From a virus, in the IMG/VR virus record IMGVR_UViG_3300044568_004391, positions 32,001-96,000 of that record: a stretch of 64,000 nt of DNA, one strand, 5' to 3'. Position numbers and translations under genes: made by a program. Positions 20,791 to 64,000 of this stretch are shown one piece after another (the stretch's first letter is position 1; every line of letters begins with the position of its first letter). The notes beneath the pieces are model-generated. The model did not search any database and had not been told where the DNA came from. It was given only the letters and a program-made list of their open reading frames with translations.

Positions 20791-20809
20791 GAAAAACGCC
20801 TTATATTTG
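20779..20809 (+). promoter_or_regulatory. Sigma-A promoter of small RNA copy 1
   Basis: TTG-N20-TATATTTG; duplicated exactly at 20959-20989. Confidence 0.75.
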
Positions 20810-20813
20810 TACT

Positions 20814-20949
20814 GTTAACGATGGTTAACTGGTCGTCGGGAGTTTAAATCATTCGTACCGAGACGAGATTATAAAGGATGATTAAAGGTTGATGTACCTC
20901 GATCGGGATGATCAAAAACATTAAAGGACCTTCGGGTCCTTTTTTTTTT
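20814..20949 (+). ncRNA. Unidentified structured small RNA, copy 1
   Basis: No meaningful ORF between promoter and GGACC-TTCG-GGTCC-T9 terminator; hairpins GTTAAC/GTTAAC, TCGTC-GG/CCG-A-GACGA, AGGT/ACCT. Confidence 0.7.
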
Positions 20950-20993
20950 ATGTGTTTTTTGGAAGTTTAAGAAAAACGCCTTATATTTGTACT

Positions 20994-21181
20994 GTTAACG
21001 ATGGTTGACTGGTCGCCAGGAGTCTGATTGTCTGTACTGGGACGAGATTATAAAAGATGATCATCGGATATTGAGTTAATCCGTACAATCTCAACGTCAA
21101 GAACCTGGCGATTAGGTTCAGGGGTGATGTACCTCAATCCGATCGGATGGAACACATCGAAGGACCTTCGGGTCCTTTTTT
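20994..21181 (+). ncRNA. Unidentified structured small RNA, copy 2 (with inserted hairpins)
   Basis: Same promoter, scaffold and terminator as copy 1; compensatory CCAG/CTGG stem; extra TTGAG/CTCAA and GAACCT/AGGTTC hairpins inside an ATCGGAT/ATCCGAT stem. Confidence 0.7.
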
Positions 21182-29980: not shown

Positions 29981-30877
29981 ATGAATGAATATATTAATCA
30001 AATAGTTTGTGACAACAGCGTTCATTTTATGAGAAATATAATGAATGAGAATTCGATTGATCTTATTATTACCAGTCCACCATACGGCGTTGGTATTGAT
30101 TATGACAGTTGGGATGATGATGAGGAGTTTGAGGATTACAAAAACTTTTCAAGGGAATGGTTGACCGAGGCTTACAGGGTTTTAAAATCTGATGGTAGAA
30201 TTTGTTTGAATATCCCATATGAAATCAATAGACAGAAGAAGGGTGGAAGGATCTTTTTCGCCTCTGAGATTTGGCAGATTATGAAGGAGATCGGATTTGG
30301 TTTCTTTGGTATTGTGGATTTGGAGGAGAGTTCACCACATAGAAGTAAAACTACTGCGTGGGGATCTTGGATGAGTCCTTCAGCTCCTTATATCTATAAC
30401 CCAAAAGAGTGTGTCATCTTGGCATATAAGAACTTATCCAAGAAACAGGTTAAGGGTACACCTGAGTGGCAGGGTGAATATCAGAGGGTTCCAAGTGAAA
30501 AGATTGAGGGTGAGTTCAGAAATAAGTTGGTTTATGATGAGAAGGACAAGAAGGATTTTATGGAACTTGTATTTGGTCAATGGAATTATTTTGCCGATAC
30601 AAGATCTTTGACCAAGGCGACCTTCAGTTTGGATATTCCTTGGAAAGCAATTAAGATCTTGTCATATAAAGAAGATATTATCTTTGATCCATTTAATGGT
30701 AGTGGAACCACGTGTTTGGCGGCGGAGAAACTCGGAAGAAAATGGATTGGATGTGAAATCAGTGAAAACTATTGTGAGGTGGCAAGAAAAAGAATTAAAG
30801 AATATCAGGCAGAAAGAAGCGCTGCCAAAACCTTATTTTGTGATGAAATTAAAACTGGAAGATTTTTGGACATATGA
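29981..30877 (+). CDS. Beta-class DNA methyltransferase (probably N4-cytosine)
   Basis: TSPPY and DPFNGSGTT. Confidence 0.9.
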   Translation: MNEYINQIVCDNSVHFMRNIMNENSIDLIITSPPYGVGIDYDSWDDDEEFEDYKNFSREWLTEAYRVLKSDGRICLNIPYEINRQKKGGRIFFASEIWQIMKEIGFGFFGIVDLEESSPHRSKTTAWGSWMSPSAPYIYNPKECVILAYKNLSKKQVKGTPEWQGEYQRVPSEKIEGEFRNKLVYDEKDKKDFMELVFGQWNYFADTRSLTKATFSLDIPWKAIKILSYKEDIIFDPFNGSGTTCLAAEKLGRKWIGCEISENYCEVARKRIKEYQAERSAAKTLFCDEIKTGRFLDI

Positions 30878-32355
30878 TAAAGAGATATAATTATTACAAC
30901 GAAGATCTGTATCGGATCGCAATTGACGAAGGGGTAAAGACCACTTCACAAGGGATTCTTTATTTCCCCACCGGCAAGTTCACGGGACGATCTCCCAAAG
31001 ACAGATATTTCTGTGATGGAGAATATGTTGATAAGGTGATAGACAAATCAAGGGAAATCAACCAAATCATATCAAGGGAAACTTATTCTAAACTCAAGAA
31101 TTCTTTGGAAGAACATATCAAGAATTCACCTGTGGAATATAAAACTTCAAGGGTAGTTTGTTATCATAAGAAGTTTCATACTTTGGTTGACCTTCATACC
31201 ACCCATGCATGGGCGAACATATTCTTCAATAATATGACCATCAATGCGACGGGGATACAAGCGGAAGGTGGAGGATTTTTTACCAAGTGGAAGGTTCTTC
31301 ACGGACCGGAGTTTGTTCCCCAAGAAACATACGAAGATCTTAAAAACCCAAACTTTGTCATCATAGATTTTGAGGATAAAACCATCATTATCGGTGGAAC
31401 CAGTTATACCGGTGAGATAAAGAAAAGCATCTTTACCGTTTTAAATACTATCTTTATTGATCACGGAGTTCTTCCGATGCATTGTTCGGCAAATGCAAAC
31501 TCCAAAAATGGAAAAGGGGTTAATCTATTTTTTGGTTTATCGGGAACAGGGAAGACAACTTTATCTTCGGATCCAAATAAGTTTTTTATCGGAGACGATG
31601 AACACGGATGGTTTGAAGATCATATCTTCAACTTCGAGGGAGGATGTTACGCAAAACTTATTAACCTCAAGAAAGAAAACGAACCAATCATTTGGGACTC
31701 CATTCATTCTCCTGATAGATTCAATCATACCAACTGTTCTTTGATGGAGAATATCGTCGTGGACGATGAGAATAACCCCGACTTTTCGGATTCATCAATT
31801 ACGGAGAATATCAGAGCATCATATTCATTGGGACAACTTCCTGAAGAGTTTATGGTAGATGATTTAGGGCTTGGAAAGAATGTCAAAAATATCTTCTTCT
31901 TATCTTTTGATGCTTTTGGTGTCTTACCTCCGATTTCAAAACTTGATTTGGATGACGCAGCAAGATTCTTCAAGATGGGATATACTTCCAAAGTGGCGGG
32001 AACGGAGGTGGGTGTGACCGAACCAACGGTGGTCTTTTCTACTTGTTTCGGTTCACCTTTCTTACCAAGAAAAGTGGAAGATTATGTGGATTTATTCAAG
32101 GAGAAAGTCCGAAAGTCGGGGTGTAATGTATGGTTGGTGAATACAGGGTTTGATGAAAATCTCAAAAGATATCCGATTGATATAACACGAAAAGTTATTA
32201 ATGGTGTGATCGACGGGAAGTATTCAGAGAAAACATTTGATTATCACGGACTCAAAATTCCCAACAGGATATTGGATCTTGATTTGATCACTCTCAAACC
32301 TGATATTGAAGAAGAAAGGATTGAGAAATTATTTGAACTTTTGGATCAACATTGA
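30874..32355 (+). CDS. pckA: Phosphoenolpyruvate carboxykinase (ATP)
   Basis: TGRSPKD, YTGEIKK, MHCSAN, GLSGTGKTTLS, IGDDEHGW, NFEGGCYAK. Confidence 0.95.
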   Translation: MIKRYNYYNEDLYRIAIDEGVKTTSQGILYFPTGKFTGRSPKDRYFCDGEYVDKVIDKSREINQIISRETYSKLKNSLEEHIKNSPVEYKTSRVVCYHKKFHTLVDLHTTHAWANIFFNNMTINATGIQAEGGGFFTKWKVLHGPEFVPQETYEDLKNPNFVIIDFEDKTIIIGGTSYTGEIKKSIFTVLNTIFIDHGVLPMHCSANANSKNGKGVNLFFGLSGTGKTTLSSDPNKFFIGDDEHGWFEDHIFNFEGGCYAKLINLKKENEPIIWDSIHSPDRFNHTNCSLMENIVVDDENNPDFSDSSITENIRASYSLGQLPEEFMVDDLGLGKNVKNIFFLSFDAFGVLPPISKLDLDDAARFFKMGYTSKVAGTEVGVTEPTVVFSTCFGSPFLPRKVEDYVDLFKEKVRKSGCNVWLVNTGFDENLKRYPIDITRKVINGVIDGKYSEKTFDYHGLKIPNRILDLDLITLKPDIEEERIEKLFELLDQH

Positions 32356-32414: not shown

Positions 32415-32777
32415 ATGGGAAGAATTACAACAGACGAAAATGAAAAACAAAGGATTTTGAATCTTCATTTGGAAGCAACCAAAAGACATTATTTGAAAGA
32501 AGATGATGGAAAATTACCACAATCAACGTTGTCAAATGCAACTATAGAAGAAGGTGATGAGGTTTATATTATTGATGGTAAATACACAATCGATGCTGCG
32601 GATGATGGAGTGAGTGTTGCTGGTACATCTGATTTGAGAGGTAAACAATTTACCAAAAATGACATCATTAAAATACCGGTGGGTAAAAGATTGTATTTTG
32701 GAAATCCAAAAAGAGTAGGTCTCGTTGCCTTGGGAGAAAAAGATGGTTCAATATATGTTCACAAACCAAAAGATTGA
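32415..32777 (+). CDS. Leader-bearing hypothetical protein
   Basis: ITTDENEKQRILNLH...YLKE leader; TATTTAT at 32391. Confidence 0.65.
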   Translation: MGRITTDENEKQRILNLHLEATKRHYLKEDDGKLPQSTLSNATIEEGDEVYIIDGKYTIDAADDGVSVAGTSDLRGKQFTKNDIIKIPVGKRLYFGNPKRVGLVALGEKDGSIYVHKPKD

Positions 32778-32779
32778 AC

Positions 32780-33460
32780 ATGAAATTTCAAATTACGGAG
32801 TCCGAGAAAAAGAGGATCAAAGATCTTTATCAAATCAATGAACAAGGTTGGATGACTCATTTTTTTGATTTACTCGACGATGGGTCAACTTCATTAGATT
32901 CTGATGGGAAAGGATCATCATCCGATTCTGATGACAAAGGATCGTCATCCGATTCTGATGGGAAGAAATATTCTTCCACAAACTATGATTCCGGGAATAT
33001 AATTGAACATATAAAAAAATGGGAGGGTTTTGTTGGATTTACTTATGACGACGCCGTATATCCATCAAAACCTGTTAAAGTAGGTGAGCGTTGTAAAGGT
33101 AGGTGTACTATAGGTTATGGTATTACGGATAAAAAAAAGGCAAAACCAGGTGCGACAGTCACTAAAGAACAAGCGGAACAATGGTTGAAAGATGTTGTCA
33201 ATCAAACATGCATACCTTGTATAGAAAGATGGCAGAAAAGAAATAAAATTGAAATATCAAAACCAATATTTGACGCTTTGATCGATGTTGTTTATAACAA
33301 AGGGTGTGATGGATTTACAACTTCACGAATTGCTAAAAAACTTAAAAATAAGGATATTGAAGGAGCGGGTGAGGAACTAAAAAATTGGCAAGGTTGGGGT
33401 GGAAATCAAAAAAGAAGAGACGCGGTATATAAAAACTTCTACACAAAAGGAATTAAATGA
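32780..33460 (+). CDS. Lysozyme (GH24-like) with N-terminal leader
   Basis: IKKWEG...YDD...TIGYG, FDALID..YN.G, RR; leader ITESEKKRIKDLYQINE. Confidence 0.8.
   Translation: MKFQITESEKKRIKDLYQINEQGWMTHFFDLLDDGSTSLDSDGKGSSSDSDDKGSSSDSDGKKYSSTNYDSGNIIEHIKKWEGFVGFTYDDAVYPSKPVKVGERCKGRCTIGYGITDKKKAKPGATVTKEQAEQWLKDVVNQTCIPCIERWQKRNKIEISKPIFDALIDVVYNKGCDGFTTSRIAKKLKNKDIEGAGEELKNWQGWGGNQKRRDAVYKNFYTKGIK
32897..32964 (+). repeat. 27-bp tandem repeat (DSDGKGSSS linker, about 2.5 copies)
   Basis: GATTCTGATG at 32897, 32924 and 32951. Confidence 0.8.
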
Positions 33461-35210: not shown

Positions 35211-35756
35211 TTAATTACGTCTAAAAATAAACCTACCAACATTTATCATACTTCTAATTTCTTCATTTGTATATTTTTCTGATAGGTATTTGTTCAAATG
35301 CAAACTACCATCAACAGATTTGAGATTTTCAAGGGTTTTAATTTTTGTTTCTCTCACATCCAAACTACTACCAACAGATTGAAGTTTTGGAAGGGATTTG
35401 ATTTGTGTTCCTCTCAAACTTAAATAACCAACAACCGATTGAAGATTATCAAGGGATTCGATTGGCGTTCCTTTCAATTCTAAATAACCACCAACCGATT
35501 GAAGATTTCCAAGAAATTTAATTTTTGTCCTTTCCAAATCTAAAAAACCCGTAATCGAAACAAGTCCTTCAAGCCAAGTTAAATCACCATCATAGCCACC
35601 CAAATTTAATTTATCATCCAACGACCATCTTTTGATGTTCTTTTTTTGGATGAAGTTTTTTAGACCTTCAATTCCATCAGGGAAAAAAGAAAGACTTGGT
35701 ATTGCCAATACCTCTTCGGTTTCCTCTTTTAATATTTGTTTAATAAGTGATCTCAT
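35211..35756 (-). CDS. Variable LRR protein (4 repeats)
   Basis: LIKQILKEETEE leader; 20-aa NLQSVGGYL.L.GT.I.SL repeats; paralog of 48287-50264. Confidence 0.8.
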   Translation of the reverse strand: MRSLIKQILKEETEEVLAIPSLSFFPDGIEGLKNFIQKKNIKRWSLDDKLNLGGYDGDLTWLEGLVSITGFLDLERTKIKFLGNLQSVGGYLELKGTPIESLDNLQSVVGYLSLRGTQIKSLPKLQSVGSSLDVRETKIKTLENLKSVDGSLHLNKYLSEKYTNEEIRSMINVGRFIFRRN

Positions 35757-35825
35757 TTCCAATAAATACCCAACTCTTGATTAATTGAATTTATATTGTT
35801 AGGTTTAAGGACAGAACTTTTAATT

Positions 35826-42097: not shown

Positions 42098-43501
42098 ATG
42101 AATCGTTTCATCTCTTTTCTTGTTCTGATGTTTATGAGTACTTTTGTGTATTCACAAAAAAACACACCTTTTGGATGTATAACCTTTGGAGAAAATAAAA
42201 ACATTTTACCGATGGGTAGGTTGAAATCCAAATCAACCAATACACCCAAAGAAATCAGATTGGTATTTCACGTTTGTTATACTGACGCGATTCCATTGAG
42301 TGAAATTCCTGTTGAATCAATATATGGTGCGATTGATCAAGCCAATGTAGATTTCGAGGGAACTAACATCAGTTTTGTTTATGCAGGTCATGATTATATC
42401 AATATCCGAGAGTTCGCTTGGCACGACTCATTTGTCTCAGGTCAAGTTTGTTTCCCAACTTATAGAACTCAATCAACAATGATTTCTAACAAATACGCTT
42501 GGGATATTTCAGAGTATTGTAATGTTTATATTATCCCTAAAATGTGTTCCACTATCTTGGGATATGCCTTTATCACATATGGACCTGCAAATAAAGATGA
42601 CGGGGTTTGGGTTAAGACCGAGTCTTTTGGGTATGGACCTTGGCCACACGTAAACCCGAAGTATGTGGAAAACGAAACCTTTAGTCATGAGCTCGGTCAC
42701 TACTGTGGATTGTTTCACGTATTCAATAACACATCGTATTGTGGACAACAAGAGGCAAACATACCTTGTGAATATGAAGGTGATTTTGTATGTGATACTC
42801 CACCCACCAAACTCGCAAGAGGATGTCCTTCCTACCCTGTTGGATCATATTGTCCTGAAGTAAATTACGATGGTGGAGTTCCATATCGTGCGAACAACCA
42901 CATGGACTATTGTCCTGAACAATGTAGAGATGTATTTACTCCAGGTCAGATAGACCGAATGCATAGAATGTTGGACTTCCAAAGATATGAGTTATACACA
43001 GAAGAGCAAGTAACACCCTTCTGTTTGGGTGATTTCGATAAGAACGGAATGATTGGAACTGGTGATCTGTTGATTATATTGTCCCATTATGGTTGTGTGG
43101 AATGTGACTATGAGGAAGGAGATATGAATATGGATGCACTTGTTAATGTTTTGGACTTAAACTTCTTGTTGGCTTTTTGGGGTGATGTTTGTGGTGACGG
43201 GGTAGGACAGATCCAAGCCAAAAGATCAGGACCTCAACCCGAATTAGAAGATCCTTTCGAGATTATCAGTAACTATGATTTTCCTGAACGAGGAACTCCC
43301 ACGAAAGAAAAAGATCGTGAAGAAAAAAAGGAAGAACCTTCTTTTGGTCTTATGAATTTGGTAAAAGAAATTAAAAAAACGGCCCAATTTAAATTGGAAG
43401 AAATTGATGAACTTGATTTGAATACGTTATTTTCTGAATATGGTGTTGATAGTTTGATTGTGAATATCAACGAAGATGAGAAAATTGTGATTGAACGATA
43501 A
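42098..43501 (+). CDS. Secreted M43 (pappalysin/ulilysin-like) zinc metalloprotease with dockerin-like domain
   Basis: Signal peptide; HELGHYCGLFH, GDFVCDTPP, NHMDY; paired DFDKNG/DMNMDA Ca-binding repeats. Confidence 0.85.
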   Translation: MNRFISFLVLMFMSTFVYSQKNTPFGCITFGENKNILPMGRLKSKSTNTPKEIRLVFHVCYTDAIPLSEIPVESIYGAIDQANVDFEGTNISFVYAGHDYINIREFAWHDSFVSGQVCFPTYRTQSTMISNKYAWDISEYCNVYIIPKMCSTILGYAFITYGPANKDDGVWVKTESFGYGPWPHVNPKYVENETFSHELGHYCGLFHVFNNTSYCGQQEANIPCEYEGDFVCDTPPTKLARGCPSYPVGSYCPEVNYDGGVPYRANNHMDYCPEQCRDVFTPGQIDRMHRMLDFQRYELYTEEQVTPFCLGDFDKNGMIGTGDLLIILSHYGCVECDYEEGDMNMDALVNVLDLNFLLAFWGDVCGDGVGQIQAKRSGPQPELEDPFEIISNYDFPERGTPTKEKDREEKKEEPSFGLMNLVKEIKKTAQFKLEEIDELDLNTLFSEYGVDSLIVNINEDEKIVIER

Positions 43502-45886: not shown

Positions 45887-46204
45887 ATGTCGATCACTCA
45901 AAAATACCTTACAATTAAAACAAGAACTTCTGGTTTCTCTTCACCGGCAGAATCCTATGTTGACAAAAGATTGGATCTAAATGAACTAATATGTCAAAAC
46001 TCATTTTCAACCTTTTATTTCAAATATGTCGGACCAAACACACTGGGTGTTAAGGATGGAGATATACTTGTTTTAGACAAGTCAGAAACACCAAAGGAAG
46101 GTGATTTGGTTGTCCTAACAGATAAGACATATTTTAAAATCCGTGAATACAAAGAACAGGATAATCTTTGGGGTAAAGTAACTTGGATCTTAACCAAAAA
46201 ATGA
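45887..46204 (+). CDS. umuD: UmuD-like Pol V accessory subunit (shortened, catalytic Ser apparently absent)
   Basis: [26 protein letters not shown]; directly upstream of umuC. Confidence 0.8.
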
Positions 46205-47406
46205 TGAAACGAAAGATCGGTATTATTGACTGCAACAATTTCTATGTTTCTTGTGAGAGGGTATTTAATCCAACTTCAATTGGAAAACCAACGGTAGTTC
46301 TATCCAATAATGATGGATGTGTAATTGCTAGATCACAAGAGGCTAAAGCGTTGGGTATAAAGATGGGTGAACCATTCTTTCAGAAAAGAGATTTTATGGA
46401 TCAACACAGGTTCTGTGTATATTCATCCAACTATAATCTATATGGTGATATGTCAGACAGGGTGATGAGTGTTATCAAAGAATATGCAAATGAAGTTGAG
46501 GTGTATTCTATTGATGAGGCATTCGTTGATTTTTCAAATATACCTGACGATGAACTTTTGGATCGTTTACATTTTATCAAAAACGAAGTGAAGAGAAAGG
46601 TGGGGATTCCAGTATCTATTGGTGTTGGACCGAATAAAACTTTGGCTAAGTTGACATCACATATTGCAAAACAAACACCCGGTTACGACGGGGTTTGTTC
46701 TTATTGGGGTTTGAAGAACTTCAGGAACATGATGTATAATGTTGAGGTTGATGAGGTGTGGGGAATTGGAAGAAAGTGGTCCAAGAAATTAAAGACAATC
46801 GGTGTGGAATCCATCGGTCAATTTATGAATATGTCGGATTATGTTGTTAGAAAGATGATGAACATAAATGGACTCAAAACCAAACACGAGTTGTTTGAGA
46901 TGTATTGTCATCCGATCCAGCTAAAGTCCAAGATGAAAAAGAATATTGCATCCACACGATCTTTTGGTGAGGATGTTGATCAGTTTGATCAGATTGCCGA
47001 AGCAATGTATTCCTACATAAAATCGGGAGTAAAGAAACTTCAAGACAACGAAATCATCGCATCACGGGCAACCATCTTTGTAAGTGGGAACAAACACAAA
47101 GATCAAGGACATTACAGATCCAAATTGGTTTTTTTCCAAGAACCAACACAAGATGTAGATATGATTTGGTCACAAGTATATCCTCTTCTCAAGAAGATAT
47201 ATTCAAATTCCAAAAAATATAAAAAGTGTGGAATCATCTTCAACGAATTAACTCCTGAAAATTCAAAACAGATTTCTTTGTTTACCGAACCCATCCAATT
47301 GGTGTCACCACCATCGAATAAGGAAAAGAGATGGGAGATGAAACAAGAATATGTATCACAAAAATATACGACATCTTGGAATGAACTACCTCTTGTCTAT
47401 GTTTAA
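46201..47406 (+). CDS. umuC: Y-family DNA polymerase V catalytic subunit
   Basis: [42 protein letters not shown]-terminal W.MK...S..YTT.W. Confidence 0.93.
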
Positions 47407-48286: not shown

Positions 48287-48886
48287 TCATAGTCTAACAA
48301 TTAAAGCACCAACATCCACCATACTTTTTATTTCTTCATTTGTTTTTGTTGATAAATAACTGTTCAAATAAAGTCTTGCACCAACAGATTTAAGATTTCC
48401 AAAGGATTCAATTTGTGTTCCTCTTATGTCCAAATAACCACCTACGGATTGAAGATTTCCAAGGGATTTAATTGGTGTTTTATTTAAATCCAAAGATGCT
48501 CCAACAGTCCTGAGATTTCCAAGGGATTCAATTGGAGTTTCTTCCAAATTCAAATCATCACCAACAGATTGAAGATTTCCAAGAGATTCAATTTGTGAGT
48601 TGTATAGGTTCAAATAACCATCAACCGATATAAGATTTTTGAAGGATTTGATTTCTGTTCCATATGCATTAAAATCACCACTAATAGAAACAAGACCTTC
48701 AAGCCAAGTTAAATCACCTTTATATCCACCCAAATCCAAATCATCATCCAACGACCATCTTGTGATGTTATTTTTTTTGATGAAGTTTTTTAGTCCTTCA
48801 ACTCCATCAGGGAAATAGTGAAGACCAGGTATTACAAATATCTCTTCGGTTTCCTCTTTTAATATTTTTTTGATTAGGTCTTTCAT
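48287..48886 (-). CDS. Variable LRR protein (5 repeats)
   Basis: MKDLIKKILKEETEE leader; 60-bp repeat units. Confidence 0.8.
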   Translation of the reverse strand: MKDLIKKILKEETEEIFVIPGLHYFPDGVEGLKNFIKKNNITRWSLDDDLDLGGYKGDLTWLEGLVSISGDFNAYGTEIKSFKNLISVDGYLNLYNSQIESLGNLQSVGDDLNLEETPIESLGNLRTVGASLDLNKTPIKSLGNLQSVGGYLDIRGTQIESFGNLKSVGARLYLNSYLSTKTNEEIKSMVDVGALIVRL

Positions 48887-49545
48887 TATCTAATAATTCT
48901 ACCACCAACATTTATCATACCTCTAATTTCTTCATCTGTATAATTCTTCAAAACGTATTTGTTTAACCACAAATTAGTACCAACATATTGAAGTTTTGGA
49001 AGGGATTCAATTTGTGTTCCTCTTATATCTAAATAATCACCAACCGACTGAAGATTTGGAAGGTCTTTAATTGGTGTTCCCTCCAAATCCAAACTACCAC
49101 CAACCGATTGAAGGTTTCCAAGGTCTTTAATTTGTGTTTTTCTTAAATCCAACCCACCACCAACCGATTGAAGATTTGGAAGGGATTCAATTTCTGTTCC
49201 TCTTAAATGTAAAAAACTACCAACCGATTGAAGATTTGGAAGGGATTTAATTTGTGTGCTTCTTATATCTAAATAACCACCAACAGATTGAAGATTTCCA
49301 AGAAATTTAATTTCTGTCCTTTCCAAATCCAAAAAACCCGTGATCGAAACAAGTCCTTCAATCCAAGTTAAATCATCTCCATATTCACGGAAATCCACAT
49401 CATCATCCAACGACCATCTTTTGATGTTCTTTTTTTGAATGAAGTTTTTTAATCCGTAAATTTCATCAGGAAAAAAACTAAGACTAGGTATTACAAATAC
49501 CTCTTCGGTTTCTTCTTTTAATATTTTTTTGATTAAGTCTTTCAT
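48886..49545 (-). CDS. Variable LRR protein (6 repeats)
   Basis: Same leader and caps; 60-bp repeat units. Confidence 0.8.
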   Translation of the reverse strand: MKDLIKKILKEETEEVFVIPSLSFFPDEIYGLKNFIQKKNIKRWSLDDDVDFREYGDDLTWIEGLVSITGFLDLERTEIKFLGNLQSVGGYLDIRSTQIKSLPNLQSVGSFLHLRGTEIESLPNLQSVGGGLDLRKTQIKDLGNLQSVGGSLDLEGTPIKDLPNLQSVGDYLDIRGTQIESLPKLQYVGTNLWLNKYVLKNYTDEEIRGMINVGGRIIR

Positions 49546-50264
49546 GGTCTTAAAATTCCACCACCAACATTTATTATATTTCTAATTTCTTCATTTGTAT
49601 ATTTTTCTGAAAGGAATTTGTTTAAAAATAAATCATATTTAACCGATTGAAGATTTTCAAAGGATTCAATTTGTGTTCTTCTTATATCTAAAGAACCACC
49701 AACAGATTGGAGTTTTGGAAGGGATTTAATTTTTGTTCCTCCTATAAACAAATTACCACCAACCGATTGAAGGTTTCCAAGGGATTTAACTTGTGTTCCA
49801 GTTAAATCCAAATGTTTACCAACATATTTAAGATTTGGAAGGGATTCTATTTGTGTTCCTCTTGTATCTAAAGACCTACCAACCGATTGAAGATTATCAA
49901 GGGATTTAATTTGTGTGCTTCTTATATCTAAATAACCACCAACCGATTGGAGATTTGGAAGGGATTTAATTTGTGTGCTTTTTATATCTAAATAACCACC
50001 AACCGATTGAAGATTATCAAGGGATTTAATTTTTTTTCCTTCCAAATCCAAATAACCACTAATGGAAACAAGACCTTCAAGCCAAGTTAAATCATCTCCA
50101 TATTCACGGAAATCCAAATCATCATCCAACGACCATCTTTTGATGTTCTTTTTTTGAATGAAGTTTTTTAATCCGTCAATTTCATCAGGAAAAAAACTAA
50201 GACCAGGTATTACAAATATCTCTTCGGTTTCTTCTTTTAATATTTTTTTGATTAAGTCTTTCAT
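49542..50264 (-). CDS. Variable LRR protein (7 repeats)
   Basis: Same leader and caps; minus-strand TATTTAT at 50273-50279. Confidence 0.8.
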   Translation of the reverse strand: MKDLIKKILKEETEEIFVIPGLSFFPDEIDGLKNFIQKKNIKRWSLDDDLDFREYGDDLTWLEGLVSISGYLDLEGKKIKSLDNLQSVGGYLDIKSTQIKSLPNLQSVGGYLDIRSTQIKSLDNLQSVGRSLDTRGTQIESLPNLKYVGKHLDLTGTQVKSLGNLQSVGGNLFIGGTKIKSLPKLQSVGGSLDIRRTQIESFENLQSVKYDLFLNKFLSEKYTNEEIRNIINVGGGILRP

Positions 50265-51508: not shown

Positions 51509-52630
51509 TTATTTTACACAAGTTTGTCCTATACCTGTTAAGAAAATTAAAAAGTCCTGTGAACTAACAAATCCATCGGCATCGAGATCACACTTATAAC
51601 ATTGACCACTTTCTGTGGTGGTTCCGTGACAACTCAAATAGATAAGAAAATCTTGTGAGGTGACTAAACCATCATTATCCAAATCCAATAAACAATTTAA
51701 AGAAAGAGTTTTGAATACATCTTTCCTGTTTTGGTTTACATAACTATGCATTCTGTTGATCTGACCATTGGTAAAACTGCGCCGACAATTATTGGCAAGG
51801 TAATCCATATGATTATCTTGGACATAACCAAACCAGGGATCAGATTCCAAAATGATCACATTACAACCTGGCGTGCAGTCGGGGACAAAGTTAGATCTTT
51901 GAAATGGTGGGGTGTCACAAACAAGATCTCCTGTCGTTCCGCAATCCAATCCATAATTTTCACAAGAGAACGCACCATTAAAGGTATGAAACAAACCAAG
52001 ATAATGACCGACCTCATGGACAAGAGTTGCGTTTCTGTGATATGAAGATGGGTTCAAAGAGAAGGTGGAAGTTCTAATCCAGATCCCGTCAGGTGGTTTG
52101 GGTGCGGGATTGATGATGGTTGCTCCGAAGGGTGGGATAAACGAAAAACCAAGAGAATTATATACTTTGGGTTGAATAAAGATATTGAGAGTTGTGTTGG
52201 GATTTACACTCATGGTATTACCAATTTCAAATAGTTTTGAAGAACCTGGCGGATACATAGCGGGAAGTTTGCTACTATTCATAGGTTCGGTCATATATTC
52301 TTGATACCAAGAGAAATCTTTCAGAGGTTTCCGATTGATTGAAACAAGAACAAATCTAAATTTTGCTTTATTGAATTTAATATTCAAATCATTTAGAGCA
52401 ACCAACAAGGTGGAGTCAGAAACATTCAACAACTGATCGTCATAGAGGACATGGAAGACGATGGGGATTTCTTTGTATGTAATCGGATCGGAGGATTTAT
52501 TGGATAGTCTAGCAGATTTACGAGACAAAGAAGAGAAATCTTTTTTGGAGGTTTGAGTTCCACATTCTTCTTGAGAGAAAGATCCAAATGATATAAAAGA
52601 CAAAAGTATTAATAAGATATAGTTTTTCAT
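51509..52630 (-). CDS. Secreted M43 zinc metalloprotease with dockerin-like domain
   Basis: Signal peptide, CGT cysteine switch, IPIVFHV, HEVGHYLGLFHTF, GDLVCDTPP, NHMDY; DLDNDG/DLDADG repeats. Confidence 0.87.
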   Translation of the reverse strand: MKNYILLILLSFISFGSFSQEECGTQTSKKDFSSLSRKSARLSNKSSDPITYKEIPIVFHVLYDDQLLNVSDSTLLVALNDLNIKFNKAKFRFVLVSINRKPLKDFSWYQEYMTEPMNSSKLPAMYPPGSSKLFEIGNTMSVNPNTTLNIFIQPKVYNSLGFSFIPPFGATIINPAPKPPDGIWIRTSTFSLNPSSYHRNATLVHEVGHYLGLFHTFNGAFSCENYGLDCGTTGDLVCDTPPFQRSNFVPDCTPGCNVIILESDPWFGYVQDNHMDYLANNCRRSFTNGQINRMHSYVNQNRKDVFKTLSLNCLLDLDNDGLVTSQDFLIYLSCHGTTTESGQCYKCDLDADGFVSSQDFLIFLTGIGQTCVK

Positions 52631-57401: not shown

Positions 57402-57775
57402 TTTAAGTTATAGTATACAATTGTTTTTTCATGTCTTACCTCCGCCACCCTTATGGACGATATATCTTCGGGATCCAAGACTTCCGAGAAGTAGGGTAGA
57501 ATTAGTTTTGCAAATTCTTCCATCAGTTCATAGAATTCTTTTGGGGGTAATGATGACAATAACAAACTATAGGTGGGGAGATTATCGGTAATAAATAAAG
57601 CCCAATAATCAGAACGGTTAAGATAAAATTTGTCTAGCTGTAAGTGGCAAATAGTTTCATGTTCTTTATTATAAAGAATGGCTATTGTGTATTCTGTGTC
57701 TTCAACCACTTTTACATGCAAGTCATCTTGAATTTCAGATAGAATTACTTTTGCGAGTTTGTTGATCTTATTCAT
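57398..57775 (-). CDS. Paralog family A member
   Basis: MNKINKLAKVILSEI. Confidence 0.7.
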   Translation of the reverse strand: MNKINKLAKVILSEIQDDLHVKVVEDTEYTIAILYNKEHETICHLQLDKFYLNRSDYWALFITDNLPTYSLLLSSLPPKEFYELMEEFAKLILPYFSEVLDPEDISSIRVAEVRHEKTIVYYNLK

Positions 57776-58128
57776 CTGTATACAATATAAGATATAAAAT
57801 GGTTGGGATAGATGCTCGACACCACCACCTCACCGTAATAATCTATTAAGTCGGGAAGGATCACATATGCGATTTTCAATGCAAAGATTTCCTGATCGGT
57901 CCTATCAAGCAAACCCAGAATCATATTCATATTTTCAATCCGAGCGGAAACGATCCTGAGTTCATAATAACTGCTGTCCTGATCATCAAGCAGTGTGGCG
58001 ATTATCCTCCCCGAAGGGTCCCTCAAATCAGAAACAGTATTGTGATCATTGTAGTGCTTGCTTTTTACAAGATCCAAATTCTCTAACTCAGGTATCATGA
58101 GAGAAACGAGTTTGTCTATCTTCTTCAT
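57772..58128 (-). CDS. Paralog family A member
   Basis: MKKIDKLVSLMIPELE; minus-strand TATTTAT at 58134-58140. Confidence 0.7.
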   Translation of the reverse strand: MKKIDKLVSLMIPELENLDLVKSKHYNDHNTVSDLRDPSGRIIATLLDDQDSSYYELRIVSARIENMNMILGLLDRTDQEIFALKIAYVILPDLIDYYGEVVVSSIYPNHFISYIVYR

Positions 58129-58269
58129 AACAGATAAATATACAAAAAAAATAATTGATAAAAAAATTGGATCTTAATTTTTTTCGCCGTAACTTAGCAT
58201 CATCTGACTAACCGAGAGGGGAGCAAGTATACTCCAACCTGCTTTATATTTTTTATAAAGGGGTGGGGA

Positions 58270-58626
58270 TTAAGTAAACCAATATTCACCTCCACCCACC
58301 TTTCCCTGAAAAGTTAAATCCTGTGGGTAAACCTTCTTCGGGATCCTTGTTCCCAACATAGAAACCATTTTCTTGAATACTCCCTTGACAACCTTAAACA
58401 TATCAGTCCATTCCAACATATTGACAACACCATTGGATTCAATAAAGTCCTTCTCAAAATAAAACTCCGATCCTATCCTATATGTGAAAAAACCAACCAA
58501 CTGACCATCCTTCCTAACAAATAACTGATTGTATCCATGCAACATATTCGGTTCCCTGATCTCAACCTCCAACGGTCCATCATCCAAGATAGAGTCAACC
58601 AATGTATTTAATTGTCTCTCTGTCAT
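58270..58626 (-). CDS. Paralog family B member
   Basis: MTERQLNTLVDSI...SNGV..ML; TATTTAT at 58642-48 (minus). Confidence 0.7.
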   Translation of the reverse strand: MTERQLNTLVDSILDDGPLEVEIREPNMLHGYNQLFVRKDGQLVGFFTYRIGSEFYFEKDFIESNGVVNMLEWTDMFKVVKGVFKKMVSMLGTRIPKKVYPQDLTFQGKVGGGEYWFT

Positions 58627-58627
58627 T

Positions 58628-58966
58628 TCAATTCCTTGTAAATAAATACCCACCCGTAAGTTTACAACAATATTCTAAACTATCCAATATAGATGGGTTG
58701 GGTATATATTCTTTAACAATAGAAGCAACCCTTCCGTATAAACCATAAAGAAGTTCTATCTGATCCTCCTCCTTTAACATATCAAATACACCATTGGATT
58801 TAACAAACTCAGGCCATAAGAAAAAGTTAATGTCACCACCATACGCAGCAACCCAATCACCATCTTGAGTTTGAACATTACACCTCCCTTCTTCACCAAC
58901 ATTAACAACTAATTCATTGTCACCTATTATGCTTTCAACCAAAGTATTTAATTGTCTCTCTGTCAT
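58628..58966 (-). CDS. Paralog family B member
   Basis: MTERQLNTLVESI...SNGV..ML; TATTTAT at 58985-91 (minus). Confidence 0.7.
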   Translation of the reverse strand: MTERQLNTLVESIIGDNELVVNVGEEGRCNVQTQDGDWVAAYGGDINFFLWPEFVKSNGVFDMLKEEDQIELLYGLYGRVASIVKEYIPNPSILDSLEYCCKLTGGYLFTRN

Positions 58967-59033
58967 ATCATTACTATTGATAATATAAATACCAATACAT
59001 AATAAATTTGGAATTGTCAAATATTCTATTACA

Positions 59034-59172
59034 GGGGGGATCAGGTGTTAGGGGATGGGTAAACCCCCTCCATACCCTATTGACCCCCCCTCCCCCTCCG
59101 TATGCCCCCCATATACCCCCCTAAGATGGGTCAAAAAGGGGGTTTAATCCCCTCTATAAAGTTTTCCCCCCT
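59034..59172. other. Homopolymeric C/G-run region at a divergent strand switch
   Basis: Multiple C5-C7 runs on + (G-tracts on -) in an otherwise AT-rich genome. Confidence 0.7.
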
Positions 59173-59342
59173 GAAAGTGAAAAAAATGTTTATAAAATTT
59201 TTTGGAAAAATTTGGGATTTTTGTCTTATATGTTTTTGGAAACATTGACCCCCTCTTTAAGAATGATCTGTATATATGAAATAAAAATTTTTGGAAAAAT
59301 TTACAAAATCGGGTTTTATATATATGATTGAAAAAAAACAAT

Positions 59343-60011
59343 ATGTTAGAAAATTTCAAATGGGGGAGTCAAGATTCTGAGACACAAAATTACTGTATAA
59401 ATGAAATTTTGGAAAACAACACATATTCAAAAATCTTCAATGTTGATCAAGGGGATATTGTTGTTGATTTGGGAGGGTCTAATGGGATCTTTAGTTATTC
59501 CATTTTAAATCGTAAACCTATGTTTATCTATGTTCTTGAGGCTATATCCGATCAGGTTAAATTAATTGATGAGAATTTAGGAGAATATCCTCACTTATCT
59601 ATTCACGGGGCACTTTCTGAAAAGAAGACAATTAAGGAAATCAGGTGGGGGTCTTATGTTGATTATAATATCCCAACTTTTTCATTTGAAGAATTTATTC
59701 ACGGGTTTAATATCCCAAAGATTGATTTCTTCAAGGTGGATATAGAGGGTGGGGAGTATGATATATTTAAAAAAGAACATATTGATTATTTGTTATCCAT
59801 TCCAAAGATCGTTTGTGAGTTTCATCTTCATAGGGACGAGAGTTTGAATAACTGTAAATTCAGATATTTCAGGGACAATATCTTACCCAACTTTTCTAAC
59901 TTCCATGTTTTTTCCTTGGACGGTGCTGATATTAAGTGGGATCTATGGAACGAACATTTTTTGGAATATTATACCGAAGTAATTTTTCATTTTGATAATA
60001 GGACACATTGA
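59343..60011 (+). CDS. FkbM-family methyltransferase
   Basis: VVDLGGSNGIFS, IDFFKVDIEGGE, CEFH. Confidence 0.85.
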   Translation: MLENFKWGSQDSETQNYCINEILENNTYSKIFNVDQGDIVVDLGGSNGIFSYSILNRKPMFIYVLEAISDQVKLIDENLGEYPHLSIHGALSEKKTIKEIRWGSYVDYNIPTFSFEEFIHGFNIPKIDFFKVDIEGGEYDIFKKEHIDYLLSIPKIVCEFHLHRDESLNNCKFRYFRDNILPNFSNFHVFSLDGADIKWDLWNEHFLEYYTEVIFHFDNRTH

Positions 60012-60145
60012 TTTTTAACCCCTCTTAAGTGAGGGGTTTTTTATTTCTGAAATATTGACCCCTCCTTTATTATGGGGATGGGAAATCTGAAATAAAATTT
60101 CTGGAAAAATTTTTTAATTTTGTTGGGGTTCATTATCTTTGGGAT

Positions 60146-60490
60146 ATGGAAAGGAAATCTGATTTGATCTTGCTTCGTTTGTTTCAAGAATTTCGGTGGG
60201 TTTCATATGGGTCTATCAAAGATCATATTAACTATAGAATTCCTGATGGGGATATGGTTTTAATTCGCAATGGTGATCCTGACAAGGAGATCTATATCCA
60301 TATGACCGGTGGTGATGCCCGGTTTAACATTGCCTTATACGAAGACCATTTTTGTGATATGTCATTGGAATATTTCAAAAAGTTTCTTCGGGTCTTTCTT
60401 TTGGAACATGGATTGCATCGGTATTCAAGGGTGGTGAAATGGGACTTCCCTTTATTTCGAAGACCTCATGGTTTCATCTCCCCTCTTTGA
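60146..60490 (+). CDS. Hypothetical protein
   Basis: 114 aa; TATCTTTG at 60134. Confidence 0.6.
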   Translation: MERKSDLILLRLFQEFRWVSYGSIKDHINYRIPDGDMVLIRNGDPDKEIYIHMTGGDARFNIALYEDHFCDMSLEYFKKFLRVFLLEHGLHRYSRVVKWDFPLFRRPHGFISPL

Positions 60491-60566
60491 GGTTAATTTA
60501 TATCCCCTCCCTTATTGGTGAGGGGTTTTTTATTTTTTATTATATTTATTTGTAAATAATAATTCT

Positions 60567-60980
60567 ATGACACAACGACTAATATTAACAGAAGAAGAAA
60601 AAAGAAACATCCAAAAGATGTATGGTATGATTAATGAACAACCTGATGACCAATTAAAAATGCTTCAAAATGAAGGTTATATTGATGTAACAGATTCTGT
60701 TCATAAAGGCGAATATGTATTAGAAATTCCTGATGGTAAAAACTATAAAGTCAAAGGTGGTGGTTATCAATTTAAGCTTTTAACAGATGATAATAAAGAA
60801 ACAGGTTATCTTTTTTTATCTGAAAATGGAGTAAGAACACCTTCTATGGAGAAAGGTCCATTCTATGTTGAGGATAATGGAAAAATGATTCGTCTTAATC
60901 AAGAATTTATAGGGATTTTAGGTCAAAATGGAAGGATTTTGTATAACCAAAAATTAAATCAAGTTAAAATTGAAAGATAA
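60567..60980 (+). CDS. Leader-bearing cargo protein
   Basis: MTQRLILTEEEKRNIQKMYGMINEQ leader. Confidence 0.75.
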   Translation: MTQRLILTEEEKRNIQKMYGMINEQPDDQLKMLQNEGYIDVTDSVHKGEYVLEIPDGKNYKVKGGGYQFKLLTDDNKETGYLFLSENGVRTPSMEKGPFYVEDNGKMIRLNQEFIGILGQNGRILYNQKLNQVKIER

Positions 60981-61067
60981 ATTTTTATAAACTATATATT
61001 TAAGAACCTCTCCAATACGGGGAGGTTTTTTTGTTTTCAATTATATTTATTTGTAAACAATAATTCT

Positions 61068-61469
61068 ATGGCACAACGACTAATATTAACAGAAGAAGAA
61101 AAGAGAAACATCCAAAAGATGTATGGTATGATTAATGAACAAGAAGAGACCAATTTCGATAAAAATTACTTTATGTCTAAAAAGACGGGAACTGTAACCT
61201 TCGGTTCTCAAGCCATTCCATTAGAAGTTGACGGGATTAAGGTTTCTGACTACAAGACCCAATGGAAAAGAAATTTCAAAATAGAGAATATAGGGGGTAG
61301 AGGATTTCAACCTGGGGTTTTCACATGGACATACGGAGAGGAAGTTCCAACGGGAGTTATGGGTTATAGTACTGATTCTGATGTACGTACATCAGAACCA
61401 GGTATATCAATAAAAGATAGTGCAAATAAAGAAGTTGGCACACTTATTTTTGAGTTACCTTGGGATTAA
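61068..61469 (+). CDS. Leader-bearing cargo protein
   Basis: Same 25-aa leader as 60567, unrelated remainder. Confidence 0.75.
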   Translation: MAQRLILTEEEKRNIQKMYGMINEQEETNFDKNYFMSKKTGTVTFGSQAIPLEVDGIKVSDYKTQWKRNFKIENIGGRGFQPGVFTWTYGEEVPTGVMGYSTDSDVRTSEPGISIKDSANKEVGTLIFELPWD

Positions 61470-61559
61470 ACCCCCTCCCTTATTGGTGAGGGGTTTTTTG
61501 TTTTTTATTATATTTATATATAAAATAAAATAAAATAAAATAATTTTAAAATCAATAAA

Positions 61560-61970
61560 ATGAGAAAAGTTAGATTGACGGAATCAGAATTGGTCCGTAT
61601 CATAGAAAGAATTGTAAAAGAAGAATCCTTAACGGGAGGTAGATCAAAACCAGAATTCAAAGGTAGATTGGCTAAATCCAAAAAAGATTTTGGGATGGGA
61701 TGGAGAGATGAATATGACAGCCCATCTGAAGGACCAGGTGAGAGATCAGGTTCGATTGTGAGTTATGAAGATTTTATGCGTTTCGCAGAAGACCACCCCG
61801 ATTTGGCTGAGTTTTATTTTGGTTGGGCCGGTGATGAATCAGGTGAAGTTTTTGACAAATATGGTGGTGTAGATCTATTTAATCCTGAAGAAGATATGGC
61901 AAATCTTGAAGAGATGAAAAGAAAAGTCAGAGTTATGGAAAATAAACTCAAAAGGAAAATGGGAAGATAA
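61560..61970 (+). CDS. Leader-bearing cargo protein
   Basis: MRKVRLTESELVRIIERIVKEE. Confidence 0.75.
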   Translation: MRKVRLTESELVRIIERIVKEESLTGGRSKPEFKGRLAKSKKDFGMGWRDEYDSPSEGPGERSGSIVSYEDFMRFAEDHPDLAEFYFGWAGDESGEVFDKYGGVDLFNPEEDMANLEEMKRKVRVMENKLKRKMGR

Positions 61971-61974
61971 CAAA

Positions 61975-62382
61975 ATGAAAAAAGTTGTAAGATTAACGGA
62001 AAATGATTTGATTAGATTAACCAAGAGAGTTCTACTCGAATCGAAAGCTCAAGAGGCGGTAGACACCGCCTTTGAAAAATTTGAATCAGGTCAAAAACCT
62101 CCAGCAGGTATGGTTCAAAATGTAAAAAAATGTTTGGAGAATACACCTCTCAGAAATATTGTTTTGGCTGGGGGAGATGTTGCTCAGTTAATTTTGAGTG
62201 TATTAGCATTGACGTTACTTGTCATGGTTGGTTGGGAAGCAGCATTGGTTGTGGCGGGGATTCATGGGGCACTTAGTATTTTAGAACACACATATAAAAT
62301 AAAAGGTGTAAATGTTTTTGCAAAATCAGAAAAAGATATAAAATTTTTCGTTAATTGTTTACAATCAAAAGGGGTAATTTAA
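61975..62382 (+). CDS. Leader-bearing protein with hydrophobic hairpin
   Basis: MKKVVRLTENDLIRLTKRVLLES; long hydrophobic stretch. Confidence 0.7.
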   Translation: MKKVVRLTENDLIRLTKRVLLESKAQEAVDTAFEKFESGQKPPAGMVQNVKKCLENTPLRNIVLAGGDVAQLILSVLALTLLVMVGWEAALVVAGIHGALSILEHTYKIKGVNVFAKSEKDIKFFVNCLQSKGVI

Positions 62383-62428
62383 TAATCGATATTTCTTCTT
62401 TTATTGGAATAAAAAATAAAATTATTTC

Positions 62429-62455
62429 GGGGACCGAATTGGTCCCCTTTTTTTT
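62429..62455 (+). terminator. Intrinsic terminator
   Basis: GGGGACC-GAATT-GGTCCCC-T run. Confidence 0.8.
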
Positions 62456-62530
62456 GAAATCTAAAATTTCTGGAAAATTTTTTGATATTATGGGGGTTTA
62501 TTCTTATGTTTATAATATAGACCCAAAATT

Positions 62531-62959
62531 ATGAAACATATCATTTCCGTTATTTGTTTTATGATCTTCTCTCTTGTGGGAAGTTCACAAACCATCACAA
62601 AGGCTGCCATCTATAGATCCACCAATCAGAAGATTTCCATTTCAGAATTTGCTGGCGGTGCCATCATCTTCTATTATCAAAATCCTGACTATACTCACAT
62701 CGTTGACCTCCTTCATTTCGGGGTTCAAAACAAGACCGAAGCTCTTGCTCTTATGGATGAATGTCTTCATGTTTTGAGTATGGAAAAAACCGGACAAGAC
62801 CAACATATCTATCATAACTATAAATTCCATCAGATCATCCGGTATGGGTTCAATCAAAACTCCGTCATCATCGGCCGGTTATATCTGAATGCCAAAACCA
62901 TCGAGGAAATCAAACTTGCTCTTCTGAACTATTCTTATTCATCAATCAAAAATCAATAA
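62531..62959 (+). CDS. Secreted hypothetical protein
   Basis: Bacteroidota-type signal peptide ending SSQ. Confidence 0.65.
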   Translation: MKHIISVICFMIFSLVGSSQTITKAAIYRSTNQKISISEFAGGAIIFYYQNPDYTHIVDLLHFGVQNKTEALALMDECLHVLSMEKTGQDQHIYHNYKFHQIIRYGFNQNSVIIGRLYLNAKTIEEIKLALLNYSYSSIKNQ

Positions 62960-62960
62960 T

Positions 62961-63569
62961 ATGAAAAAAGTTATTATCTTAATTTGTTTGGGACTTATTT
63001 CCTTGACCTCTTCTTCCCAACAATATATCGATATATTTCATTCAAGTCGCGGACCACATGTGATTAGCGCTTGTGAAGATGGAAAAGGTGGTTATGTTCA
63101 TTTCTATCAAATGGAACCTATGGGGTTTTCAAGATCTACTCTTCTCTTTTTTGAAAATAAATCTGAAGACGATTCTCTGTCCGATGATTTTTATGAGGTG
63201 ATTGACTTAACAAAAAAAATGTTAAAAAGAAAATATGTTGAAAAAAGAAAGGAAACTCCCGACACAACTCTTGTCAATTTCACCACAAATATGAAATGTG
63301 CCTTTCTTCATAAGGATGTTTGGTATTTTGATCGTGATGTAAACCTTTCTTATGAACTCACCAGAGAACCTTGGGGTATGGAAATAAAGGTCGAAACTGA
63401 TCGTCTCTGCGATGATAAAAACCCAAATATCTGCGTCCAAGGTGGAAGGTTTGTATTTTTGGATTATGAAGATTTTTATCTCTTCCCACTTTATTATTTG
63501 GATTGGGATGATGTGAATAGAATTCTAAACGAAAAAAAATCTCTTGAGCAATATTTTATTGATCAATAA
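62961..63569 (+). CDS. Secreted hypothetical protein
   Basis: Signal peptide ending SSSQ. Confidence 0.65.
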   Translation: MKKVIILICLGLISLTSSSQQYIDIFHSSRGPHVISACEDGKGGYVHFYQMEPMGFSRSTLLFFENKSEDDSLSDDFYEVIDLTKKMLKRKYVEKRKETPDTTLVNFTTNMKCAFLHKDVWYFDRDVNLSYELTREPWGMEIKVETDRLCDDKNPNICVQGGRFVFLDYEDFYLFPLYYLDWDDVNRILNEKKSLEQYFIDQ

Positions 63570-63599
63570 TTTTTATTGTTTCCCTATGTATTTATTAAT

Positions 63600-64000
63600 A
63601 TGGGAAAAAGAATTGTAATTTCAGAAAATGAGAAAGTAAAAATTCGTAAGTTATATGGATTGTCTGAAGGACTTGATTTTGAGCAGATCATGCTTGGGAT
63701 CGGGTCCATCATTTTTTTAAGAAAGTTTTTTCAAGGACTTCGTTCTGATCCCAAATTCAAAGCATTATTTCTTCGTGATGAAGATGTGGAACAGAATATC
63801 AAACACTTGGATAAGGTGATGGAAAGATATTTGAATGGTCTCGATGAGTATTACAGTGATATTGAAGAATATGACCGGGTGGAAATTCGTGATATATATG
63901 AAAACGATATTAAACCTTTGCTCAGAGAAAAGAAACTTGTGGATATGGAAGATATTGTGAATTATTTGAGTTACAAACTAGATTATCTTAACAAACAAAA
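63600..64000 (+). CDS. Leader-bearing protein (3'-partial, not in ORF track)
   Basis: MGKRIVISENEKVKIRKLYGLSEG...; open to window end; TATTTAT at 63589. Confidence 0.7.
   Translation, partial: MGKRIVISENEKVKIRKLYGLSEGLDFEQIMLGIGSIIFLRKFFQGLRSDPKFKALFLRDEDVEQNIKHLDKVMERYLNGLDEYYSDIEEYDRVEIRDIYENDIKPLLREKKLVDMEDIVNYLSYKLDYLNKQ

Follow-up and report, generated by a model that had tools for sequence, protein, structure and literature searches.

Promoter-early stem-loops (PeSLs) are ~100-bp repeats, made up of a promoter and a terminator stem-loop, that precede ORFans in the hyperplastic regions of T4-type phage genomes (Arbiol et al. 2010, PMC2839356; Comeau et al. 2014, PMC4122927). PeSLs bound the insertions and deletions (indels) between close T4-type relatives, and homologous recombination between them has been proposed (PMC2839356, PMC4122927). 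The T-even internal proteins IPI, IPII, IPIII and Alt have a capsid-targeting sequence (CTS) as their only conserved feature and are encoded at hyperdiverse loci (PMC3012670). In the giant phages phiKZ and SPN3US, head and ejection proteins bear short (20-24 residue) or long N-terminal propeptides that are removed by the prohead protease after a P1 Glu, and this processing extends to many functionally uncharacterized head-internal proteins (PMC10052503). Here we describe a locus in IMG/VR virus record IMGVR_UViG_3300044568_004391 where near-identical blocks, each comprising a promoter-like motif, a short 5' untranslated region (UTR) and 25 leader codons, precede unrelated protein bodies. The window that we analyzed is a stretch of 64,000 nucleotides (nt), bases 32001-96000 of this linear 151,984-nt record. 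We consider it likely that the locus consists of terminator-promoter-leader cassettes with unrelated bodies that are exchanged at the conserved blocks by PeSL-like shuffling.

The shared block is defined by two adjacent open reading frames (ORFs), gene A and gene B, of 137 and 133 amino acids (aa). Only 3 of 101 nt distinguish the segments 60541-60641 and 61042-61142 (97% identity, E = 2e-44), and self-blastn lengthened the pair to 60523-60655 and 61024-61155 (91.7% over 133 nt). The two proteins agree at 24 of the first 25 positions, M[T/A]QRLILTEEEKRNIQKMYGMINEQ, and BLASTP between the two ORFs found no similarity past residue 25. The drop from 97% nucleotide identity to none falls within one codon, after codon 25 (...MINEQ). 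The block at 60504-60549, which consists of a terminator-like stem-loop and the promoter-like motif, is repeated at 61472-61517 with a single mismatch over 46 nt as read from the sequence, and blastn matched 60498-60556 to 61466-61524 at 91.5% over 59 nt. These results agree with an earlier note on this DNA, which had reported the near-identity of the two segments, the recurrence of the terminator block with its TATTTAT motif, and the end of identity exactly after ...MINEQ with unrelated proteins downstream. The three stem-loops of the locus (T1, T2 and T3) have folding energies of -14.3, -16.4 and -14.6 kcal/mol and each is followed by a U-run. The stem of T2 (61002-61030, before gene B) differs in sequence from those of T1 and T3, so that only the promoter-like motif, the UTR and the leader are common to all copies. 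The description of these units as near-identical terminator-promoter-leader blocks consequently holds for motif, UTR and leader but not for the terminator of gene B. In the 152-kb record the exact leader DNA is present in just two copies; the block is thus a local feature rather than a record-wide array, and the expandable array suggested earlier gave way to two copies of this leader with no obviously expanding series.

The promoter-like motif ATATTTATTTGTAAA occurs six times in the window, where 0.29 matches would be expected, and every match is on the plus strand and just upstream of an ORF start. The motif is kept in seven block copies from four genomes. A sigma-70 promoter reading of this element was rejected, as no such site was found at 60537-60566 or 61037-61067 and the total number of sites did not exceed that in shuffled sequences. 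PHROG scans of the genes that follow other ATATTTAT-type motifs did not point to a time of expression.

The cargo bodies behind the two leaders were compared with known families and with each other. The cassette genes had no Pfam or PHROG match above threshold, and neither cargo matched a solved fold in the PDB. For this reason the term effector, used in the earlier note, is an assumption. Body B belongs to a family of homologues at 45-59% identity, and body A has 18 representative homologues. When leaders were removed, BLASTP among all bodies found in this study gave no significant pair except the alleles P0005 and P0006, and in a profile-profile comparison (hhalign) of the body A and body B family alignments only the leader columns aligned. 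AlphaFold2 (AF2) models with predicted local distance difference test (pLDDT) scores of 68 for A and 76 for B have beta-rich bodies in which the order of secondary-structure elements differs. On the basis of sequence and profile comparison and of these differing element orders, rather than of direct superposition of the models, bodies A and B are not detectably homologous. Homology of the cargos, the outcome on which the earlier note had let its reading fall, was therefore not found.

Cargo exchange was examined in six related metagenome contigs (L006, L007, L008, L010, L011 and L013), which differ in sample and assembler (ENA, JGI, Logan) and carry the shared block at 88-97% identity. There the block precedes five further unrelated bodies (P0003, P0004, P0005/6, P0007-9 and P0037). 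Over seven block copies from four genomes, identity spans the region from the promoter-like motif to codon 25 and collapses at the same codon, after N-E/D-Q. In the window the order is the 60146 gene, leader-A, leader-B and the 61560 gene. L013 has the 60146 gene (97.2%), a leader-P0004 body, a 107-aa gene and the start of 61560; its positions 1-495 equal window 60145-60641 at 97.2% and continue into a P0004-type body in place of A. L010 overlaps L013 and has two more leader-body cassettes upstream of the 60146 gene. The order in L008 is leader-P0003 body, leader-P0004 body and a 61560-like gene, and that in L007 is a 158-aa gene, leader-P0004 body and a 61560-like start. In L011 a 158-aa gene (98.2% to L007) is followed by leader-A (97.5% to the window). 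This contig is L007-like through the terminator and promoter elements and window-like from approximately leader codon 10, and this switch of parent places the exchange point inside the shared block. L006 is 14 kb long and 91-97% identical in nucleotides to the window in shared genes. Where the window has six genes (59328 to 62382), L006 has four others: an HNH gene, one of 140 aa, leader-P0009 and one of 211 aa that bears a class-a leader. Another five whole-gene indels separate L006 from the window. The L006 junctions coincide either with the terminator/promoter block or with a repeated intergenic block of a second class (Table 1). The 152-kb record contains neither the alternative bodies nor the genes specific to L006. 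The variable cargo behind a conserved leader that had been predicted for relatives was thus seen in six contigs, and synteny with fixed cargo was not.

The leader itself was found on proteins with other bodies. Its consensus in protein searches is M[TAG]QRLIL[TS]EEEKR[ND]IQKMYGMIN[ED]Q, and a leader-restricted search of 5.8 billion proteins returned 10 clusters that represent seven distinct bodies. Leader-type N-termini are present on eight ORFs in the record and on seven ORFs in an 18-kb stretch of a relative's 265-kb contig; the leader pattern was seen six times at internal protein positions in 55,833 residues. Bodies and leaders combine in various ways, with body B found behind leader classes a, c and f and body A behind a, b, d, e and f. 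The body B leaders are of the RLTESDLxRIVxRVI type, of ISxEEKNRILEQH plus LLESKxGxxKPLISEQ, or IINEEEKNRILNMH, and body A has these types plus KEINEIRQMMGLVNEQ and SKIRHIQESNxRLEKRLLGEQ. The ending [LIVM]-x-E-[Q/G] is shared by 45 of 48 distinct leaders from six classes, compared to 15 of 206 (7%) other ORFs, and the shorter [LIVM]-x-E by all 48 compared to 38% of other ORFs. The 48 leaders are related in sequence and the p-value of this enrichment overstates their independence; the recurrence of the junction motif across six classes is the stronger argument. The junction E is invariant in 12 body-B homologues that span three leader classes. In the stacked two-body proteins P0020, P0024 and P0029, ...EQ stands before each body (...NEQ in P0020). 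The AF2 model of leader A has a low-confidence helix at residues 9-18 and then a low-confidence disordered junction at residues 19-25. The leader is a module at the protein level, more than a recombination scar. The 3' edge of the block after ...NEQ is a domain boundary, the end of a leader module with six classes, and hence does not mark a crossover.

Two proteins outside the cassette locus also bear such leaders. In a 228-aa protein at window 32774-33460, a Ser/Asp-rich linker joins a class-b-like leader (MNMKFQITESEKKRIKDLYQINEQ) to a Phage_lysozyme domain (E = 1.7e-20). At 97054-98472 of the record, just past the end of the window, a 472-aa protein combines a PG_binding_1 domain with a related leader. 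Separately, a module of ~80 aa (..YYIF..TNAxQKxP..G..YxNxGKGY..) lies between leader and body in L008:1298-1783, a homologue of gene 61560. This module also stands before a body-A domain in P0020 and is a further mobile domain of the combinatorial set.

We propose the following mechanism for cassette exchange. A cassette comprises a terminator-like stem-loop, a conserved promoter-like motif, a short UTR, an N-terminal leader of 22-25 residues and an unrelated body. The 100-135-nt block, near-identical within and between genomes, could serve as a landing pad for homologous recombination, with a similar block downstream of the body as the second landing pad. Block-to-block exchange would then insert, delete or replace whole cassettes, and an incoming cassette would bring its own transcription signals and N-terminal tag. 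General homologous recombination is the simplest explanation for such exchange. No gene for a recombinase turned up in the nine ORFs that were scanned around the cassettes. Integrase families were likewise absent from these nine neighbors and no attC-like site was seen nearby, although no dedicated IntI/attC search was made. The sole integrase-like match in the window is weak (E = 5.4e-4) and lies 45 kb away at 15244. The earlier note had invoked homologous recombination for the swapping of cargo domains. Variable cargo and the switch of parent inside the block of L011 bear this out in part, while recombination itself as the operating mechanism, like the action of the motifs as promoter and terminator, is deduced from comparisons.

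Several observations weigh against this proposal. With 10 protein clusters and two copies in the record, this block is a small, lineage-restricted system. The first in-frame fusion of a new body at ...EQ is not accounted for by homologous recombination. The conserved motif is not of the sigma-70 type and lies only ~10-25 nt from the start codon, so its promoter role is assumed. Most of the relatives are contigs of 1.4-3.5 kb, and a near-identical repeat of 135 nt invites chimeric joins of short reads. The junction contexts in L011, L013 and L008 could thus be artefacts, and only G000 and L006 have unique flanks on both sides of the region. Regardless, the core of the proposal, that variable and non-homologous cargo is exchanged at conserved blocks, is largely supported.

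The concern over short contigs can be extended to all of the mosaics, which would then be metagenome contigs joined chimerically at the repeat while the true genomes are colinear. The length of the repeat (100-135 nt), its 93-97% identity and its long exact runs, comparable to assembler k-mers, would allow such artefacts, and five of the six informative relatives are no longer than 3.5 kb. We nevertheless find this explanation unlikely. The absence of the alternative bodies from the 152-kb record indicates that different genomes do carry different bodies behind the same leader, several of the indels in the 14-kb L006 each have unique, 91-97% identical sequence on both sides, and the contigs differ in sample and assembler of origin. 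It could also be argued that A and B are paralogues from a tandem duplication whose C-terminal parts diverged while selection or gene conversion kept the 5' end, without any swapping. The genes are indeed adjacent, similar in size and both beta-rich, and there are tandem paralogues with conserved N-termini nearby, such as 58270 and 58628. Such an origin is highly improbable, however, given that each body belongs to its own conserved family with homologues that have entirely different leaders, that profile comparison aligns the leader alone, that in relatives the block at this locus is followed by further unrelated bodies, and that nucleotide identity is lost inside a single codon.

Two further alternatives concern what the leader does. 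The block may be an expression element, a promoter with a translation-initiation region in which the codons are constrained as mRNA, the peptide has no function and genes are captured behind a strong signal. The non-coding promoter-like motif and UTR are conserved as well as the codons. Moreover, substitutions among block copies are about equally non-synonymous (codon 2 T/A/G/K, N/D, E/D) and synonymous, suggesting recent homogenisation rather than purifying selection on the peptide. That leader classes of very different DNA keep the peptide architecture and the [LIVM]-x-E-[Q/G] end argues for a role of the peptide, as do the ...EQ-like motif before the internal body domains of P0024 and P0020 and the invariant junction E of the body-B homologues, and we give this alternative little credence. 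A constant N-terminus with a variable C-terminus is likewise reminiscent of polymorphic toxins or secreted effectors, with the leader as a trafficking domain for export or the envelope and the bodies as interchangeable toxins or enzymes. The leader-bearing Phage_lysozyme and PG_binding_1 proteins, both envelope-acting, would fit this arrangement. Yet a reading of the leader as a signal peptide was rejected because it lacks a hydrophobic stretch: it is charged and amphipathic, without hydrophobic core or lipobox, unlike the ordinary signal peptides of the neighboring genes 62531 and 62961. Immunity-like partner genes are not evident, and cell-wall enzymes are equally compatible with virion delivery. 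There is accordingly only a slight chance, in our estimation, that the leader belongs to a toxin-like system. We thus favor cassette exchange at conserved blocks over these alternatives.

The cassette locus is a hyperplastic region of an uncultured giant phage. The record has a G+C content of 34% and a CheckV completeness of ~52%, and the genes recognized in it include thymidylate synthase, DNA methyltransferases, a Y-family polymerase and phosphoenolpyruvate carboxykinase (PEPCK). Virion structural proteins are present in the flanks. One of them matches phrog_1645 (E = 8.5e-48), and its best matches in cultured phages are mainly T4-like cyanophages at 27-32% identity. A T4 affinity of this phage is hinted at by the sequence of this one virion protein; the head and replication core genes were not identified in the approximately half genome present. 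Window 59000-64000 had no blastn match in 50,697 phage records, a virion structural protein used as query for related loci in IMG/VR found no relatives, and the exact degenerate leader pattern had no match in IMG/VR. A protein with a class-a leader gave a single weak tblastn match in cultured phages, outside the leader. The leader-pattern search of JGI metagenomes returned six loci, of which L009, L012 and L014 were discarded as false positives from unrelated bacterial contigs.

The features of the locus are listed in Table 1. The second-class intergenic block at 62455-62502 is 83.7% identical to 60088-60134, and the block is also found in the relatives at 2539-2628, 4522-4623 and 5489-5578 of L006 and at 1241-1375 and 2251-2335 of L007. 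Synteny with L006 and L007 picks up again at 62426..62502, and window 62462-62959 corresponds to L006 4564-5061 at 94%.

Table 1 Features of the cassette locus in window coordinates.
Feature	Position	Strand	Remarks
Intrinsic-terminator-like stem-loop after FkbM-type methyltransferase gene (59328-60011)	60017..60048	+	-14.2 kcal/mol, U-run; related to stems at 60508 and 61476 (repeat family D7)
Second-class repeated intergenic block; bounds cassettes in relatives	60040..60134	+	Families D2-D6, D20; other copies at 59189-59310 and 62455-62502
114-aa ORF without family match; conserved upstream flank of cassette A	60146..60490	+	97.2% identical in L013
Terminator-like stem-loop T1 (CCCCTCCC..GAGGGG + U-run)	60498..60536	+	-14.3 kcal/mol; 0/200 shuffles fold as well
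Promoter-like motif ATATTTATTTGTAAA and short 5' UTR, in shared block	60537..60566	+	
Leader A, 25 codons, MTQRLILTEEEKRNIQKMYGMINEQ	60567..60641	+	
Gene A ORF, 137 aa	60567-60980	+	
Cargo A, 112-aa beta-rich domain of unknown function	60642..60980	+	GYIDVTD..IPDG..GxGY..TGY..LYNxKLNQVK family
Terminator-like stem-loop T2, own stem sequence	61002..61030	+	-16.4 kcal/mol
Promoter-like motif and 5' UTR, copy 2	61037..61067	+	
Leader B, 25 codons, MAQRLILTEEEKRNIQKMYGMINEQ	61068..61142	+	
Gene B ORF, 133 aa	61068-61469	+	
Cargo B, 108-aa domain of unknown function	61143..61469	+	NFDKNYF..GGRGFQGG..PGISIKD..VGTLIF family
Terminator-like stem-loop T3 and promoter-like motif, copy 3 of block, upstream of gene 61560	61466..61524	+	45/46 nt identical to 60504-60549
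136-aa ORF, class-a leader (MRKVRLTESELVRIIERIVKEE)	61560..61970	+	
135-aa ORF, class-a leader (MKKVVRLTENDLIRLTKRVLLES)	61975..62382	+	Missing from relative L006
Terminator-like stem-loop and second-class intergenic block	62426..62502	+	-15 kcal/mol
142-aa ORF running off window end, class-b-like leader (MGKRIVISENEKVKIRKLYGLSEG)	63600..64000	+	In L006 and L007 at 90-96% aa identity

Other features of the window were noted in passing. On the minus strand at 57772-59020 there are tandem paralogues of 112-118 aa with the common N-terminus MTERQLNTLV; they contain a DNA repeat (58595-58650 and 58935-58993, 86%), and L006 has one extra paralogue. A four-gene family with 72-86% nucleotide identity and internal repeat units of ~60 nt was found by self-blastn at 35211-35762 and 48287-50264. 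There is a 108-nt direct repeat of 87% identity (20775-20882 and 20955-21061) where long ORFs are absent. The PEPCK gene at 30874-32355 is full-length and ATP-dependent (PEPCK_ATP, E = 3.6e-140) and represents an unusual auxiliary metabolic gene. The gene at 40845-41861 matches PHROG 1211 (E = 2.9e-62), annotated there as 2-aminooxy adenylosuccinate synthetase, and may be PurZ/PurA-like. Two genes, 42098-43501 and 51509-52630, encode Peptidase_M43 (pappalysin-type) metalloproteases, the second of which also bears dockerin/EF-hand-like repeats. The Y-family DNA polymerase at 46183-47406 is UmuC-type with IMS, IMS_C and DUF4113 domains.

What the leader may do was considered by analogy with proteins that are packaged in phage heads. 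Of the roles considered, we regard a capsid-loading tag that is subsequently removed by a protease, similar to the T4 CTS, as the best candidate, although we advance it tentatively. As with the CTS, a short conserved N-terminal peptide is the only common feature of diverse small proteins, and the genes are in plastic regions in both cases. T4-type prohead proteases cut at hydrophobic-x-Glu, and the leaders here end in hydrophobic-x-Glu, which as a motif resembles a site of this type. In contrast to the CTS, the leaders are 22-25 residues long, fall into at least six sequence classes and have no apparent CTS resemblance. The prohead protease families S77 (PF03420) and S78 (PF04586) had no match in the ~52%-complete record, where the PF03420 control also matched nothing. 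A short N-terminal segment that ends at Glu is likewise shared with the propeptides of giant phages. The cleavage site of those propeptides has a small residue at P3 (A/S/G-x-E), whereas P3 is hydrophobic in the leaders here. Nor have near-identical DNA blocks that serve in cassette exchange been described for the giant-phage propeptides.

If the leader does load the capsid, the block might be a three-in-one adaptor that combines recombination homology, an expression signal and a cleavable capsid-loading tag. We hold this combination to be somewhat unlikely. If true, any ORF captured behind the block would become virion-delivered at once, and the six leader classes would flag an extensive combinatorial set of injected proteins, cell-wall enzymes included, in a lineage of uncultured giant phages. 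It would amount to an integron-like system for virion cargo driven by homologous recombination. With a capsid-loading tag, the variable bodies would be candidate injected proteins for host takeover or counter-defence, and the leader would provide a simple sequence handle to find such proteins in metagenomes. Several of the bodies are new domain families without a known fold.

In its organization the locus is comparable to both integrons and PeSLs. Like integrons, it has arrays of interchangeable, promoter-dependent single-gene cassettes whose content varies between relatives; it differs in that the shared sequence is the 5' end including coding sequence. The resemblance to PeSLs includes a composite intergenic repeat with a stable stem-loop and an adjacent candidate promoter-like motif, downstream genes without Pfam or PHROG family, and a region that is mosaic between relatives. 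Indels and replacements are bounded by the motifs here as well, as judged from the window and L006, L007, L008, L011 and L013, which are mostly short contigs. Unlike the PeSL promoter, which matches the host sigma-70 consensus, the element ATATTTATTTGTAAA is not sigma-70-like, and PeSLs come from T4-type phages whereas this lineage is uncultured. The block here also continues past the start codon through 25 codons, such that a protein tag moves with the regulatory signals. The locus thus offers a breakpoint-level case, outside cultured T4-type phages, of accessory-gene exchange without a dedicated recombinase, and it suggests that a recombination module can reach into coding sequence and carry a candidate sorting tag along with expression signals. 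Overall, these findings extend the gene-shuffling mechanism known from T4-type phages.
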